From contig CBDCYI010000005.1 of the NCBI GenBank assembly GCA_965224085.1, positions 1,280,001 to 1,344,000 of the forward strand: a stretch of 64,000 bases of DNA, written 5' to 3'. A model generated the notes under the pieces. That model was not told where the DNA came from. It was given only the letters and a program-made list of their open reading frames with translations, and did not search any database. This document shows positions 37,741 to 42,827 of this stretch, piece by piece. This DNA is from Candidatus Marinacidobacterales bacterium. GTDB lineage: Bacteria > Acidobacteriota > Vicinamibacteria > Marinacidobacterales > SMYC01. How positions within the stretch are numbered: position 1 is the first letter of the stretch; each line of letters opens with the position of its first letter. The position numbers were made by a program, and so were the translations under genes.

Positions 37741-38088
37741 TCAGGAACGCTTCGATGGCTCCTCGACGAGTTGGGTGACGGCCGACTTCGCGACTTGAAC
37801 TTTCACGCTGTCGGCCACCCTCAAGTGGATGAGATCGTCGTGCACACTGACGACGGTCCCGTAGATGCCGCCGGTCGTCAAGACACGGTCGCCATTCTTC
37901 AACTCTTCCCTCATCGTCTCCGTTTCCTGCTGGCTTTTGCGCATGGGCCTAATCATGATCAAGTAAAACAAGCCGAAGATGATGAGGATCAGTATGAACT
38001 GGTTACCGAAGAACGAACCGGGAGCCTGCCATGGTACGAACCAAGGGCTGAACATCCATGTAATGATAGTGCACTGATTTTCGGGCAT
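37741..38088 (-). CDS. yajC: Preprotein translocase subunit YajC (start 38088 or 38055)
   Basis: FYLIMIRP, L..GD.V.T.GGIYG; between tgt and secD. Confidence 0.9.
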   Translation of the reverse strand: MPENQCTIITWMFSPWFVPWQAPGSFFGNQFILILIIFGLFYLIMIRPMRKSQQETETMREELKNGDRVLTTGGIYGTVVSVHDDLIHLRVADSVKVQVAKSAVTQLVEEPSKRS

Positions 38089-39215
38089 CAAGCCGAAGGC
38101 GCGTCCAATCGTTCGGAAAGCTCTTTTCGGAGCGTTTCGAAACGATCTTCTTCGATGGCGCGGCGCATGCGCCGCATGAGCTCCAAGTAGAAATGGAGAT
38201 TGTGGATGGTGTTGAGCGTCCGCGCCGTCATTTCTTTGGAGACGAACAGGTGTCGCAAATAGGCCCGGGAAAAGGTCCCGCAAGTGTAGCAGGAGCAGTC
38301 CGAATCGAGCGGCCCGTGGTCGTCGGTGTAGCGGGCGTTCTTGATCGCGAGCTTCCCAGTGCTCGTGAAGAGCGTTCCATTGCGGGCGTTTCGCGTGGGC
38401 AGCACACAATCGAACAAGTCCACACCGCGGGCGACGGATTCGATCAGGTCGCCCGGCGTTCCCGCACCCATAAGGTAACGCGGGCGATCCGCGGGCAGCT
38501 CTGCAGTCGACATCTCGGTCATCGCGCGCGTCAACTCCTTGGGCTCGCCCACCGCGAGGCCCCCGATCCCGTAACCGGGAAAGTCGAGCTCGGCGAGCTC
38601 CTTCGCGTGGTCGCGCCGAATGTTCTCGAAGACGCCGCCTTGAACGATGCCGAAAAGCGCTTGCTCTTCGCGGGACTTCGCTTTCAGGCACCGGCGTGCC
38701 CAGGCGCTCGTTCGTTCAGTGGCCTTGTGCACAGTGTCTTGCTCCGACGGATAGAGGAGGCACTCATCGAGAACCATCGCGATGTCCGCGCCCAGCTTTT
38801 CCTGGATCTCGACGGCTTTCTCGGGGCTGAGCGCGTGCAAGCTTCCGTCCAGGTGCGAGCGGAAGGTCACGCCTTCGTCATCGACGCGTCTGAGCGCGGC
38901 TAGGCTTGCGATTTGGAACCCGCCGCTATCCGTGAGAATGGGCTTCCGCCACGCCATCATCCCGTGAAGGCCGCCCAGCGAAACGACTCTCTCGGCACCG
39001 GGACGCAGCATCAAGTGATAAGTGTTCGAGAGAACGATTTGGGTGCCGAGCTCCTCCACTTGTTTCTGTGTGAGCGTCTTCACCGAGCCCTGTGTCGCCA
39101 CGGGCATGAACGCAGGCGTCTCGACCATCCCGTGCGGTGTCCTCAGGACGCCGCGCCGTGCCGCGACGGACCGAGCCCGAACCGAGAACGAAAACGACGA
39201 ATCGGATTGCGTCAT
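38088..39215 (-). CDS. tgt: tRNA-guanine transglycosylase
   Basis: TPAFMPV, NTYHL, TDSGGFQ, GIVQGG, DCVLPTR, CxCxxC, HNL. Confidence 0.96.
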   Translation of the reverse strand: MTQSDSSFSFSVRARSVAARRGVLRTPHGMVETPAFMPVATQGSVKTLTQKQVEELGTQIVLSNTYHLMLRPGAERVVSLGGLHGMMAWRKPILTDSGGFQIASLAALRRVDDEGVTFRSHLDGSLHALSPEKAVEIQEKLGADIAMVLDECLLYPSEQDTVHKATERTSAWARRCLKAKSREEQALFGIVQGGVFENIRRDHAKELAELDFPGYGIGGLAVGEPKELTRAMTEMSTAELPADRPRYLMGAGTPGDLIESVARGVDLFDCVLPTRNARNGTLFTSTGKLAIKNARYTDDHGPLDSDCSCYTCGTFSRAYLRHLFVSKEMTARTLNTIHNLHFYLELMRRMRRAIEEDRFETLRKELSERLDAPSA

Positions 39216-39349
39216 GCTCTTGCTTTATTGTCTCTCAGAAAAACGCCGAGTCGCTCTTGGCATACGTTGTGACTTGCTTTACGAAGTATGGCTCCCTGCT
39301 AACATCTTCAATCCAAAAGCCTCGAGGTTGACGTCGAACGAATTAGGCC

Positions 39350-39378
39350 TTGACAGGCCATATAGCCTTCTTTATGCT
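39350..39378 (+). promoter_or_regulatory. Putative sigma70 promoter of Lys-rich sORF unit
   Basis: TTGACA-17-TATGCT. Confidence 0.65.
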
Positions 39379-39596
39379 ACATCTAGTATGCCAAGGGCAG
39401 ACTCAAACGATTTCTAGTGTTGTGGCTCTTCGAAGCAAACAGCGTTCTTTGGACCTCGCGTCCAGAGAAGAAACTGTTTGAGTTTCTTGGCGTGCGAGCG
39501 GAAGTTCGAGATGTCATTTAGTAAAATTTCGATGTTGCAACCAAGTGACGTGTTCGGACCCCTTCGCTCTATCCCCTAAGGAGAGGAGGCGATTGT

Positions 39597-39671
39597 ATGG
39601 CAAAGAAAAAAGCTGCAAAGAAAAAGGCTAAGAAAAAAGCCACCAAAAAGAAAGCTGCAAAGAAGAAATAG
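39597..39671 (+). CDS. 24-aa Lys/Ala-rich small protein MAKKKAAKKKAKKKATKKKAAKKK (histone H1-tail-like)
   Basis: GAGGAGG RBS 7 nt upstream; mixed AAA/AAG codons keeping a KKK-A(A/T) repeat; own promoter and terminator; absent from ORF track (<60 aa). Confidence 0.75.
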   Translation: MAKKKAAKKKAKKKATKKKAAKKK

Positions 39672-39696
39672 CGACTTCCTCAGGGGTATCGAGAGC

Positions 39697-39725
39697 GGGG
39701 GTGAGTCCTTCACCCCCTTTTTTTT
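39697..39725 (+). terminator. Rho-independent terminator
   Basis: GGGGGTGA-gtcct-TCACCCCC followed by T8. Confidence 0.85.
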
Positions 39726-39742
39726 CAGCGTCAGAATTAGCA

Positions 39743-40678
39743 TTAACGATCTGCTTTTTTCGATGACACTCTCTCCAATTTGGAGTCGCACCCAAGTTTA
39801 GAGAGCTTCATCACCTGGAGTGAGTCCTGAATGCCTGATCGCAGAACGTAACGTCGGATCGCCCGAGCTACTCCCGCTTCGTCGTTGGTTTCGGTTTCTT
39901 CGAAGCCGCGCTCGCGAAGCTCTTGGGTGGCGTTTTGCATTACCACACCCATCCCGGCGTGCTCCAGCATATCTAGATCGTTCCAGTTGTCTCCGATGGC
40001 GAGCGTTTCAGACAACGGTATTCTCAAACGTTCGCTCACGAAACGAAGCGCCGCGGACTTCGTCGCTTCGGCTGCCAGGACATCGAGCAGAGCGAGGTCG
40101 TCAACTGGATATTCTGTGCGCGCCAGACTTACTTCGTTTCGTCGGGCGCCGAGCTCCGTATTCAGCAAAGTCGCGAAGCTACGGATGACCGAGACGCTGT
40201 TCGCGAAGCCGATCTGGACCGGGTCGCGCTCGAGTCGTATGACGTCGGTCCAAGCAGGTGGGGGAGTCGATCGAGTCAGATAGCGCAAGAGGTGCGGGAG
40301 CTCGCGCGCGCTTTTCCTTAGAATGAGATGGCCCTCTGCGTTGGGGCCATCATGCACGACGACTTCCATCGCGCTGCGCTCCGCGATATCGAGCACCTGC
40401 TCGGCGACGGGGCGCGCGAGGAGACGCCGCCTCAAAATGGGGCCGTCGATCCCTTCCATTATGATGGCGCCGCTATTTGCGACGACGAACGCGTCGAGGT
40501 CGAGCGCCCGCAAGTAGGGAAGGACAGAAGGAAAGCGGCGGCCAGTGACGATGGCGATGGCGACGCCTGCCGAGGCGCACTCCGCGAGGGCGCGGTGATT
40601 CTCAGCGGGGATCTCGTGAGACGAGCTCAGCAGGGTACCGTCGAGGTCGACGGCGACGAGACGATAATTACCGCTCAC
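39743..40678 (-). CDS. Cof-type HAD-IIB hydrolase
   Basis: DLDGTLL, VTGR, K, GDNWNDLDML, ND..GVA. Confidence 0.9.
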   Translation of the reverse strand: MSGNYRLVAVDLDGTLLSSSHEIPAENHRALAECASAGVAIAIVTGRRFPSVLPYLRALDLDAFVVANSGAIIMEGIDGPILRRRLLARPVAEQVLDIAERSAMEVVVHDGPNAEGHLILRKSARELPHLLRYLTRSTPPPAWTDVIRLERDPVQIGFANSVSVIRSFATLLNTELGARRNEVSLARTEYPVDDLALLDVLAAEATKSAALRFVSERLRIPLSETLAIGDNWNDLDMLEHAGMGVVMQNATQELRERGFEETETNDEAGVARAIRRYVLRSGIQDSLQVMKLSKLGCDSKLERVSSKKADR

Positions 40679-42827
40679 GATAAGGAGAGTTGAAACCGTC
40701 CCAGATCGTGACCTCTTCGATGGTGTCGGAAGGCTCGATGCGGTCCACGATCTCCATCCCTCTCGTGACTTGCCCGAATACCGTGTGTAGGCCGTCGAGG
40801 TCAGGCCTCGGCAAGTGGGTGATGAAGAATTGGCTGCCGGCGGTGTCTTTGCCGTGATCCGCCATAACGAGCGTGCCGCGCGCGATGGGCCGCGTGTTGA
40901 TTTCCGAGCGGATGGCATAGCCCGGACCGCCATTGCCGTCGCCGCGTGGATCCCCGCTCTGGACGAAGCCGTTGGGCACGACGCGATGGAAGGAGAGGCC
41001 ATCGAAAAAGCCCTGCCGCGCGAGACGGACAAAATTTCGAACCGTGAGCGGCGCATCCAGCACGAACAGCTCGAGCTCGATCGTGCCCCCCCGGCTCGTG
41101 CGGATGAAGGCTTGGGGTGAATAGGGTGGGCTCACATAAGGCTCGTAGGTCCCGAGGCCCTGCTGGCTGGGCCGTGCGATCACCCGCACGTTTTTCGACC
41201 CGCCGTGTCTCAAGATCGACGCGGCTCGGATGCGGACGAGATAGTTGGTGTCCTTGAGCGCTTCGCGCGCCATCGATTCGGCTTCGGCCGCATCCAGCTT
41301 GGCGAGCGCCGCGAGAAGCTCTGCTTTGACCCGAGGCTCGTTGGAGCTCTCGATGAGGAAGGCCTGTTTGACGGGCGCCACACCGTCACGCGCTCGGAGC
41401 GCCGCGAGGCCGCGCGCGGCGGCCAGCCGCTCGAACGGGTCCTTTGCCGTCAAATGCTGAATAAGCACCGTGACCGCACCGCCCGGATCGCGCGTCGCGA
41501 GCGCGGTCAACGCGTGCGCCCGAACCCGAGGATCCAGCTCGTCCACCATCGTTCGCAGGAGCGCTACGCTACGCTCGGACGCCAAGCGTCCCAACAAATC
41601 GGCGAGGGCCGCTCGGACCCGCCAATGCTTGTCTTGGCCGAGGCCCGCCAAAAGAAGCCAAAACCCGTTGGTGTCTTGGCGCGCGAGTGCTCCGAGCGTG
41701 AGCCCACGTATCCATGGGCTCGCGCTCCCGAGCCGATCGATGAGAGGCTCGACGGCCGTCTCCGCGCGCAACTCCGCTAACGCTTTCAGCACTTCGGTCT
41801 GAACATAGCGGGTGTCCCTGTCCAAGAGTGGCACGAGATCATCGGCGCGTGCATGCAGCCGATGGGCTCCCGCGGCGCGAATAGCCTCGATGCGGACGCT
41901 CTCGTTCGGGTCCGCGATGAGGAGGCGTACATAGTCCTGCGCTTGTTCTGAGCTGATGGATCGCAGCCCTCGTGCACCCCAATACCGGAACTCGGGGTTC
42001 CTCGAACCGGCGTAAAAGCGCAGGATGGGAGCGAGCTCGTCGCCCGAGAGTGCTGTGGCTGTCCAAGCCGCGGGCCACCATACGAAACGCGGCGTGCTCC
42101 CCTGGGTCGCAAGTAGTCCCCAGCCGTAGCGAAGGCTATCGAGCCGCGCTAGCGCGAACAAACCGAGGCGCAAATCGAAATGTGGATAGCTCAAAGCCGA
42201 CGCTTGCACATCGTCGCTCCATTGGTAGGGCTCTCCGCCTTTCGGCATCCGGGCGAGAAGCGTCGTCGCGATCGCCTCGGCAGAGCTGGCATCTCCGTTT
42301 TTCCCGAGTGCTTCCACCGCTCGGGCTCGAACCCGCTCGCTCGTGTCGTCCAAAAGCTCGGTCAAACGGTCGATCGCGTCCTTAGGCAGCTCGTCTTCCA
42401 GAAGGCCGAGTGCAAACGCAGCTGTTGCACGCACATAAGGCGACGCGTCATCGAGAAGGGTTGCGATGGTGAGCGCGGCACCAGGGCCGCCGATACGGGC
42501 GCGCACGAGCGCGGCCTGCCCTCGGACTCTGCCAGCGGGATCGCTCAGCCTTGCCTCCACCTCGCCGTCGCCGAGAGAGCGCTCGTCTTCGAGCTTCATG
42601 AGCCGGGAGAGCTTGCTCTCGAGGGTCGGACCGGCCGGTGTCACAGGCGCTGACGCGCACCCCGCGGCAATCCAGATCAAGAAAAAGGCTGCCGGCAAGC
42701 TGACGAAAAAGTACAGCGGCTCGACTGGGCCGACTGCGGAGAGCCGAGCGAGGAGCGAGGGGACGTGCGCGCGAACGAGGCGTTCGCGCGCACGGATCAG
42801 TGGTATTGGGCGCAGCCGCCGTGTCAT
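40668..42827 (-). CDS. HEAT-repeat protein with C-terminal cyclophilin-type PPIase domain (start uncertain)
   Basis: VR..A..ALG repeats; FHRVVP..VQSGDP, GSQFFIT, TVFGQV; lipobox-like IAAGC. Confidence 0.85.
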   Translation of the reverse strand: MTRRLRPIPLIRARERLVRAHVPSLLARLSAVGPVEPLYFFVSLPAAFFLIWIAAGCASAPVTPAGPTLESKLSRLMKLEDERSLGDGEVEARLSDPAGRVRGQAALVRARIGGPGAALTIATLLDDASPYVRATAAFALGLLEDELPKDAIDRLTELLDDTSERVRARAVEALGKNGDASSAEAIATTLLARMPKGGEPYQWSDDVQASALSYPHFDLRLGLFALARLDSLRYGWGLLATQGSTPRFVWWPAAWTATALSGDELAPILRFYAGSRNPEFRYWGARGLRSISSEQAQDYVRLLIADPNESVRIEAIRAAGAHRLHARADDLVPLLDRDTRYVQTEVLKALAELRAETAVEPLIDRLGSASPWIRGLTLGALARQDTNGFWLLLAGLGQDKHWRVRAALADLLGRLASERSVALLRTMVDELDPRVRAHALTALATRDPGGAVTVLIQHLTAKDPFERLAAARGLAALRARDGVAPVKQAFLIESSNEPRVKAELLAALAKLDAAEAESMAREALKDTNYLVRIRAASILRHGGSKNVRVIARPSQQGLGTYEPYVSPPYSPQAFIRTSRGGTIELELFVLDAPLTVRNFVRLARQGFFDGLSFHRVVPNGFVQSGDPRGDGNGGPGYAIRSEINTRPIARGTLVMADHGKDTAGSQFFITHLPRPDLDGLHTVFGQVTRGMEIVDRIEPSDTIEEVTIWDGFNSPYRER

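Follow-up and report, generated by a model that had tools for sequence, protein, structure and literature searches.

A predicted lineage-specific gene for a lysine- and alanine-rich peptide, with its own promoter and terminator, in Candidatus Marinacidobacterales

Organization of the locus

A small gene for a peptide composed almost entirely of lysine and alanine is predicted in a 64,000-nt stretch of the genome of a Candidatus Marinacidobacterales bacterium (GCA_965224085.1, contig CBDCYI010000005.1, positions 1,280,001 to 1,344,000; hereafter the window). Judged from its sequence and that of its relatives, it is a small gene with its own promoter and terminator and a member of a lineage-specific family that usually comprises two paralogs per genome. 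The paralog in the window is referred to as copy A, the second one as copy B. Copy A is located between tgt and the gene of a Cof-type hydrolase (cof) and is laid out as follows (ORF, open reading frame; UTR, untranslated region):

38088-39215, − strand: TGT gene (tgt), PF01702, E 3.9e-157.
39350-39378, + strand: promoter TTGACA-17-TATGCT, found by a consensus scan (10/12 match); most orthologs have an A-rich stretch 5′ of the promoter.
39379-39390, + strand: start box ACATCTAGTATG, surrounding the likely transcription start and common to both paralog types.
39386-39494, + strand: leader domain P1, a predicted long branched hairpin (minimum free energy (MFE) fold, single-sequence folds, covariation).
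39388-39417, + strand: candidate 9-codon upstream ORF MPRADSNDF, whose start codon is within 2-4 nt of the likely 5′ end.
39396-39641, + strand: stretch covered by metatranscriptome contigs (four libraries, one study), comprising leader and ORF start.
39495-39569, + strand: leader domain P2, a predicted hairpin closed by GAGCGG/CCGCUC (folds and covariation).
39573-39589, + strand: CCCCU (39573-39577) and the Shine-Dalgarno sequence GAGGAGG (39583-39589), the 5′ strand of a proposed clamp.
39597-39671, + strand: Lys/Ala ORF of 24 codons, stop TAG at 39669-39671.
39675-39688, + strand: 3′UTR box CUUCCUCAGGGGUA, beginning 3 nt past the stop and proposed as the anti-Shine-Dalgarno strand of the clamp.
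39697-39725, + strand: intrinsic terminator GGGGGUGAG-UCC-UUCACCCCC followed by U8 (terminator scan, fold), maintained in relatives.
Ending at 39743, − strand: Cof-type HAD hydrolase gene (cof), PF08282, E 1.1e-32, convergent with the Lys/Ala gene.

The original prediction had described a promoter, a leader of about 210 nt, a GAGGAGG sequence, an ORF and a terminator at this site. All of them are present at the coordinates it gave, as seen by scanning and translation, and the placement of the ORF between tgt and a Cof hydrolase is borne out by the Pfam families assigned to the two neighbors. Its description of a stand-alone transcription unit agrees with the arrangement of both paralogs in this genome, each of which terminates facing a convergent gene.

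The promoter scan over 1.2 kb returned 2 promoter-like sites, compared to 0.5 ± 0.7 in shuffled sequences, and the pattern TTGACA-N17-TA(T/C)(G/C)CT is maintained at the copy-A and copy-B loci of relatives. The leader measures about 212 nt when the transcription start is taken about 7 nt 3′ of the −10 hexamer. The start box varies as ACATCTAGTrT in both paralog types and as ACAGCTAGyG in copy B of this genus; a regular expression requiring ACATCTAGT yields 37 matches among the scanned loci. The Shine-Dalgarno sequence ends 7 nt upstream of the ATG. The terminator stem (39697-39717) starts 25 nt past the stop codon, consists of 9 pairs (6 of them G-C) followed by T8, and is the sole terminator-like site that the scan returned on the + strand. 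The G+C content of the locus amounts to 0.44-0.48, compared to approximately 0.60-0.66 in the flanks.

A regulon marked by the ACATCTAG start box was considered and rejected: in the source genome the box stands behind a promoter only at this gene, and CTACATCTAG occurs 4 times, once behind a promoter-like TTGACA. Most f1 orthologs (see below) carry a conserved stretch (GCTAACATCTTCAATCCAAAAGC and variants) in the interval from the start of tgt to the promoter of the Lys/Ala gene (39216-39349); this stretch could be the promoter or 5′UTR of tgt or an upstream element of the Lys/Ala gene.

Conservation and paralogs

The DNA from 39216 to 39742 (527 nt) was used as a query against 41 genomes including the source genome. 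These belong to three families of the order Candidatus Marinacidobacterales, here termed f1, f2 and f3. The locus is matched in 26 of the 41 genomes, the source included, with 18/18 in f1, 7/8 in f2 and 0/14 in f3; the sole f2 genome that lacks a match (G027) is 83% complete. An in-frame Lys/Ala ORF behind GGAGG is found in all 20 best loci (L001-L020), whereby the ORF of L011 is recognized when the start codon beside the Shine-Dalgarno sequence is used.

In f1, copy A has tgt on one side and cof on the other. The five f2 copy-A loci compared also adjoin cof and show no tgt within the ~1.5 kb fetched on each side. Frame, ribosome-binding site and Lys-rich composition are conserved in both families, with tgt as a neighbor in f1 only. 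One f2 locus (L012, genome G029, C21) has cof in the same orientation as the Lys/Ala gene and past its terminator; this is the only co-directional case in the set of copy-A loci compared, the others having a convergent cof.

Copy B of the source genome is located at C4:585235-585312, and second copies were found in 11 other f1 genomes, so that most f1 genomes harbor two paralogs. Copy B is preceded by an enolase-superfamily gene (MR_MLE_C), its leader measures about 100 nt, and a convergent gene again faces its terminator. Both copies share the promoter, the start box, GAGAGGAGG, the ORF type, the 3′UTR box and the terminator, and differ in their leaders and neighbors. In 9 of 14 copy-B leaders (e.g. 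L031, L026 and L028), a GTG in the start box (GCG in L030) opens a frame of 29 or 40 codons with poorly conserved residues, which stops at a TGA overlapping the Shine-Dalgarno sequence (GGAGGTGA) of the Lys-rich ORF.

Pattern searches of the order, the class and the phylum returned nothing comparable outside f1 and f2. A Shine-Dalgarno-plus-MAK(K/R)(K/R) pattern is matched in 17/18 f1, 3/8 f2 and 1/28 f3 genomes. The f3 match resembles uS11, and the other extra matches examined are proteins of 59-334 aa, with two G027 loci outside that examination. A tiny-ORF pattern (approximately 13-23 codons) is matched in 9 of 151 genomes of the class, all of them f1, and in none of 100 genomes outside the order. 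The 3′UTR box is matched in 5 of 401 genomes of the phylum, the source included; the other four matches have 2 mismatches each and no Lys-rich ORF, and a reversed-pattern control over the phylum genomes gave 7 matches.

The peptide and its coding signature

The peptide MAKKKAAKKKAKKKATKKKAAKKK, as translated from 39597-39671, consists of 15 Lys, 7 Ala, 1 Thr and 1 Met. ORFs of 12-150 aa with at least 35% Lys occur only 4 times in the 6.87-Mb genome, and two of these are the Lys/Ala ORF and its paralog; the ORF therefore exceeds what chance would give. The other two are 12 and 14 aa long and have no GGAGG in the 20 nt upstream of their start.

With the 3′UTR box as an anchor, 34 genes (33 distinct ORFs) were extracted as a coding set. 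Six members (L016, L019, L038, L042, L044 and L045) are outside this count because their box deviates from the search pattern; five of them have Lys/Ala ORFs, and L038 is matched by the Shine-Dalgarno-plus-start motif only. The 769 internal codons of the 33 ORFs encode Lys (470), Ala (199), Thr (69), Ser (13), Arg (12), Val (4) and Gly (2) and nothing else. The all-purine triplets are AAA (144), AAG (326), AGA (10), AGG (2) and GGA (1), with GAA/GAG as well as AAC/AAT at zero. Guanine in the AAR codons (R, purine) is thus frequent at the third position, rare at the second, where it gives Arg, and absent from the first, where it would give Glu. A purine-rich or A-R-N motif at the RNA level fails to predict this distribution over the codon positions, which speaks for selection on the protein. 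Ala, Thr and Ser codons stay in frame throughout the set.

In all 34 genes an ATG or GTG follows GGAGG (GGGGG in L029) at a distance of 4-9 nt, and the stop codon comes immediately after the last KKK(K) run. Read with a two-base shift, the same 33 sequences contain 26 stops. The ORF length ranges from 14 to 41 codons in the coding set and reaches 62 in L016. These changes are accounted for by the tandem repeat of which the ORF is built, an imperfect 15-nt unit present in 4.8 copies at 39597-39671. No member has a signal peptide or a hydrophobic segment, and a rare Val is the only hydrophobic residue. Taken together, the comparison of sequences identifies this as a real conserved gene, with a chance ORF set aside. 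It further indicates that selection acts at the protein level, as the original prediction had proposed from synonymous variation; the codon statistics of the 33 ORFs and the conservation across two families agree on this point.

Gene callers were expected to miss an ORF of this kind, and indeed none of 10 exact peptides is contained in a collection of 15 billion proteins. The 24-aa peptide matched no family in Pfam (which includes HC2, PF07382) or NCBIfam and no PDB chain sequence at E values up to 10. The Pfam result is weak evidence because profile methods handle very short low-complexity queries poorly, and for a 24-residue peptide of this composition the three results neither support nor exclude the nucleoid-condensing, protamine-like or ribosome-binding role put forward in the original prediction. 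A protein homolog search with a 41-aa ortholog gave one match of E 0.21 among 477 candidates, which is uninformative for low-complexity sequence. In the ESM Atlas, the nearest clusters are unnamed hypothetical proteins of 39-43 aa (score 0.96-0.97), a lead only given the low recognition value (1256), and the nearest Pfam-bearing cluster, with HC2 (PF07382) on 17% of its members and a score of 0.90, is likewise a lead only. An Rfam search over 39000-40000 at E up to 10 returned best E values of 2.4-6.2, far under the gathering scores. No paper on such a peptide or on the order Marinacidobacterales was found in a literature search that covered neither subscription journals nor supplementary files. 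The idea of the peptide as a detached HU tail was rejected, as HU-family frames are similar in length in families with and without the gene.

The 3′UTR box and a proposed clamp

The 3′UTR box CUUCCUCAGGGG is nearly invariant in both paralog types and begins 1-9 nt past the stop codon across members. Conservation of this box, of the terminator stem and of the 5′ box exceeds that of the ORF and of the central part of the leader. The box is complementary to the Shine-Dalgarno region, with GAGGAGG opposite CUUCCUC and CCCCU (AUCC in copy B) opposite AGGGG (GGGU), so that the whole ORF would form the loop of a clamp. For 30 distinct Shine-Dalgarno/3′UTR pairs, the predicted duplex energy averages −17.9 kcal/mol, compared to −9.4 kcal/mol for shuffled 3′UTRs (mean z −3.0; p ≤ 0.05 in 27 of the 30). 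Among 32 aligned sequences, 96.4% of the positions in the helix between Shine-Dalgarno sequence and box and 81.3% in the CCCCU:AGGGG helix are paired.

A third box locus lies outside the window in the same genome (C5:1602049-1602319, − strand; loci L169-L177). Here, the same box of about 30 nt (GACTTCCTCAGGGGTAA.AAGAGGAGGGTGGCAC), without a Lys-rich ORF, is placed just past a terminator-like hairpin; a permease gene, presumably of the acidobacterial duplicated (ADOP) type, follows about 110 nt downstream. GAGGAGG follows the box by 11 nt, and the two could form a local hairpin; the same two strands thus recur in another setting. The locus was found in 10 of 12 f1 relatives searched and not in 4 f2 or 3 f3 genomes, and it has no Rfam match.

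The structured leader of copy A

The predicted transcript folds with an MFE of −122.9 kcal/mol (z −4.83 against shuffles). By inspection, each of 23 single-sequence folds of copy-A leaders shows the same two-domain shape (P1, P2). A covariance model of the leader was seeded from 7 close sequences and aligned 19 of 25 sources. On this alignment, whose fit to the structure makes the figures lean toward pairing, 86.7% of the cells are paired, compared to 75.4% in shuffles, and double-sided changes occur at 45 of 68 pairs, compared to 24.5 ± 2.8 in shuffles (0 of 500 reach 45). Slid controls gave 38.8-42.6% paired cells and 14-21 pairs with double-sided changes. In helices 7 and 8, which belong to P2, 96.2% and 90.3% are paired and 17 of 21 pairs are changed on both sides. 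In the single-sequence folds, the closing stem of P2 changes from GAGCGG/CCGCUC to GGCAUG/CAUGCC and other pairs. From these comparisons, the copy-A leader is taken to be a two-domain RNA of about 190 nt with covarying pairs.

An AUG with an in-frame UAG nine codons on is present in 20 of 23 copy-A leaders, with poorly conserved residues. This candidate upstream ORF may be untranslated, may be a leaderless ORF or may be a by-product of two conserved CTAG boxes.

RNA libraries

Four sponge metatranscriptome libraries from one study contain 25-35% of the sampled words of a 545-base query (39216-39760). The main contig of each library starts at 39396 (three runs) or 39402 (one run) and ends at 39587, 39637 or 39641. 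The contigs differ from the window by 1-3 letters each, one of them additionally by a 4-base gap. The contig start is placed 18 nt past the −10 hexamer, and the ends at 39637-39641 fall within the tandem repeat. No contig of the four libraries covers flanking tgt or cof sequence within 39000-40000, which is not evidence for transcription of the small gene only.

Other Lys-rich and neighboring ORFs

Further Lys-rich sequences are present elsewhere in the genome. An ORF of 175 aa outside the window (C5:1701212, + strand) combines about 100 N-terminal residues of Lys/Ala/Thr/Arg repeats with an acidic C-terminus and, by reading of its sequence, seems to resemble H1/HC2-like proteins. Lys-rich extensions occur on a GyrA/ParC-like ORF (C5:738599), a phasin-like ORF (C4:564785) and a uL30-like ORF (C5:1226461), whose identities were read from sequence.

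Beside the locus, the longest ORF over the Cof-type hydrolase extends from 39743 to 41056 (− strand, 437 aa), of which only the last 285 residues served as the Cof query. The real start probably lies near 40600; what precedes it in the ORF may be spurious. A 719-aa ORF (40668-42827, − strand) has a C-terminal part that reads as cyclophilin-type peptidyl-prolyl isomerase-like and a long repeat-rich N-terminal region.

Proposed function and alternatives

The favored reading joins these observations: a conserved small gene in which the clamp, perhaps together with the leader, gates translation and the peptide acts on nucleic acids as a polycation. As a whole, it is given about an even chance of being right. 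In this mechanism, the 3′UTR box would pair with CCCCU...GAGGAGG, and the ORF would become the clamp loop directly ahead of the terminator. The clamp would keep basal translation low. From the known footprint of a ribosome on mRNA, a ribosome terminating at the stop codon would cover a box that begins 1-9 nt past the stop; it would thereby unwind the box and free the start site for the next ribosome. Copy A would add a two-domain structured leader of about 190 nt, which perhaps gates translation as well. The product would be a binder or condenser of DNA or RNA that resembles the tail of histone H1 and is made under particular conditions.

Several points weigh against this reading. The nucleic-acid-binding role is suggested by composition and analogy, and the peptide is a prediction from DNA. 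The Lys codons are also A-R-N triplets, the motif bound by the distal face of Hfq, and the A-rich stretch could have a role at the RNA level. The clamp is proposed from complementarity, and its Shine-Dalgarno strand would be conserved in any case. Covariation in the clamp is not above that of shuffles, with 4 double-change pairs compared to 3.4 and 222 of 500 shuffles as high, because there is hardly any variation in either strand. The leader alignment was fitted to the structure of its model, which favors pairing, and one f2 leader is among the 19 of 25 that matched. MAFFT and RNAalifold on their own gave no consensus structure for 23 leaders because the variable middle of the leader misaligns. 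The RNA evidence consists of contigs of one study for which strand and RNA ends are not given, and an RNA library can contain DNA.

A ribosome-bound microprotein, comparable to the very small basic ribosomal proteins bTHX, bL37 and bS22, which came to light only in structures of ribosomes, and with the structured leader providing feedback control, is an unlikely alternative. It is supported by the tiny size and extreme basicity of the peptide, by a near-consensus −35 element and a strong Shine-Dalgarno sequence, and by the presence of the locus in 18/18 f1 and 7/8 f2 genomes. Small basic ribosomal proteins are likewise missed by annotation; bS22 and bL37 have reportedly been studied in mycobacteria, Cutibacterium, Borreliella and Porphyromonas. 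The Lys-rich N-terminal extension in the same genome, on an ORF that is presumably uL30-like, fits as well. However, searches of NCBIfam, Pfam and PDB chains up to an E value of 10 returned nothing, and no ribosome structure is known for this lineage. A length of 14-62 residues that changes by gain and loss of repeats fits a single fixed rRNA pocket poorly, and both the presence of two paralogs and the lack of the gene in the third family of the order argue against a ribosomal component.

Similarly low is the chance that the RNA is the working part. The locus would then produce a regulatory RNA of about 340 nt or a small RNA derived from the 3′UTR, whose exposed CUUCCUCAGGGG pairs with the Shine-Dalgarno sequences of other mRNAs or which sequesters an RNA-binding protein. 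The role of ORF translation would be limited to switching this RNA, e.g. by sensing translation capacity or lysyl-tRNA. The greater conservation of box, terminator stem and 5′ box compared to ORF and leader middle is in line with this, as are the covarying leader structure, the recurrence of the box upstream of a permease gene at the third conserved locus without a Lys-rich ORF, and the single-amino-acid run ahead of a terminator, an arrangement shared with attenuator leader peptides. The coding signature argues against it: 769 codons contain no Asn, Glu, Asp or Gln, the third position is a purine in all 470 AAR codons, and Ala, Thr and Ser are always in frame. The perfect start context is kept in 34/34 extracted genes, too. 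Neither paralog is followed by a co-directional gene in the source genome (among the copy-A loci compared, G029 alone has a co-directional cof).

More doubtful is the action on another polyanion or a surface, such as polyphosphate granules, the membrane, a released cationic antimicrobial or host-directed peptide, or a small store of nitrogen or lysine. Its only support is the extreme positive charge of the peptide; AlgP-like Lys/Ala repeats associate with polyphosphate granules, and the near-identical sequence in sponge metatranscriptomes makes a host-associated setting conceivable. The peptide has neither a signal peptide nor a hydrophobic segment, no transporter or processing gene is linked in the neighborhood of either paralog, and no result of this analysis points to those targets. 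The last alternative is that the locus contains no functional gene and the ORF arose by chance within a purine-rich simple repeat that separates two genes. It draws on the 15-nt imperfect tandem repeat (4.8 copies), on the T-poor sequence that easily leaves frames open and on a peptide seen in DNA alone. It is highly improbable given that the whole unit is kept in f1 and f2 and in both paralogs, whose leaders and neighbors differ, that the codon pattern is strict (26 stops in the two-base-shifted frame of 33 sequences), and that promoter, Shine-Dalgarno sequence, start, stop and terminator are all maintained.

The favored reading of a gated polycation gene can be extended to a bolder version, which is speculative and rather unlikely. 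The product would be a ribosomally encoded oligolysine, i.e. an encoded polyamine or protamine, made from a self-priming all-or-none mRNA switch with the leader as threshold sensor. This switch could fill the cell with a peptide carrying a charge of approximately +10 to +40, which would compact DNA, RNA or ribosomes as the cell turns dormant or host-associated.

The paralog, the covarying leader and the Shine-Dalgarno-complementary box go beyond the original prediction, and because of them the RNA deserves no less attention than the peptide. If confirmed, the gene would be the smallest stand-alone gene for a Lys/Ala polycation known to us in bacteria, an H1/HupB-type tail without a folded domain. 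It would also be a lineage's core gene that is missing from protein catalogues, which illustrates what length cut-offs and low-complexity filters hide. The locus would provide a compact model of translation control by 5′ and 3′UTRs in bacteria, in which a clamp encloses a tiny ORF ahead of the terminator with a covarying leader upstream. As the lineage is known to us only from metagenome-assembled genomes and near-identical sequence occurs in sponge metatranscriptomes, both RNA and peptide could serve as markers of its physiology.

Comparison with known systems

Lys/Ala-rich proteins and tails that resemble histone H1 are known from bacteria as chlamydial Hc1 and Hc2, Pseudomonas AlgP and the tail of mycobacterial HupB. 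The peptide shares with them the Lys/Ala(/Thr) repeats and the lack of acidic residues. They differ in that the known examples are either proteins of about 100 to several hundred residues or extensions of a folded domain, whereas the peptides of this family have 14-62 residues and no other domain. A profile match to HC2 (PF07382) is absent from the Pfam search at E up to 10, which is weak evidence for such a short low-complexity query. The ribosomal proteins bTHX, bL37 and bS22 are similar in being about 24-33 residues long, very basic and missed by gene callers. They are fixed sequences, in contrast to the repeat of variable length found here, which has no NCBIfam or PDB-chain match.

Attenuator leader peptides of the his, trp, thr and phe type are likewise encoded by short ORFs in which a single amino acid prevails (Lys in 15 of 24 codons here) and which are directly followed by an intrinsic terminator. 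They differ in that neither paralog has a co-directional downstream operon in the source genome and the unit is free-standing. The mRNAs of type I toxin-antitoxin systems are set apart by a hydrophobic membrane peptide and a conserved antisense RNA. The Lys/Ala peptide is not hydrophobic, and the sole promoter-like site on the − strand (39619-39592, 9/12) falls in sequence that is variable among orthologs.

For the proposed clamp, two mRNAs offer the closest known mechanisms. In icaR mRNA from Staphylococcus aureus, a UCCCCUG motif in the 3′UTR pairs with the Shine-Dalgarno region of the same mRNA, and RNase III cleavage and blocked initiation have been demonstrated (PMC3868564). The likeness to what is described there lies in a C-rich 3′UTR motif complementary to the Shine-Dalgarno sequence of its own mRNA, which is conserved here in 30 pairs and 32 sequences. 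The Lys/Ala ORF differs in being only 45-190 nt long, so that the pairing, known here from complementarity, would close a small hairpin around the entire ORF with the box 1-9 nt past the stop. The hbs mRNA from Bacillus subtilis, which encodes HU, has a structured 5′UTR, a strong Shine-Dalgarno sequence and a 14-bp interaction between 5′ and 3′UTR (PMC5737220). The Lys/Ala mRNA resembles it in being short, in coding for a small basic protein and in combining a structured leader and a strong Shine-Dalgarno sequence with 5′/3′ pairing. In the Lys/Ala gene this pairing is predicted, and the complementarity differs in that it spans the Shine-Dalgarno sequence itself. Both kinds with which the gene can be compared, the Lys/Ala polycations and the mRNAs whose Shine-Dalgarno sequence is sequestered by another part of the same molecule, are already known.

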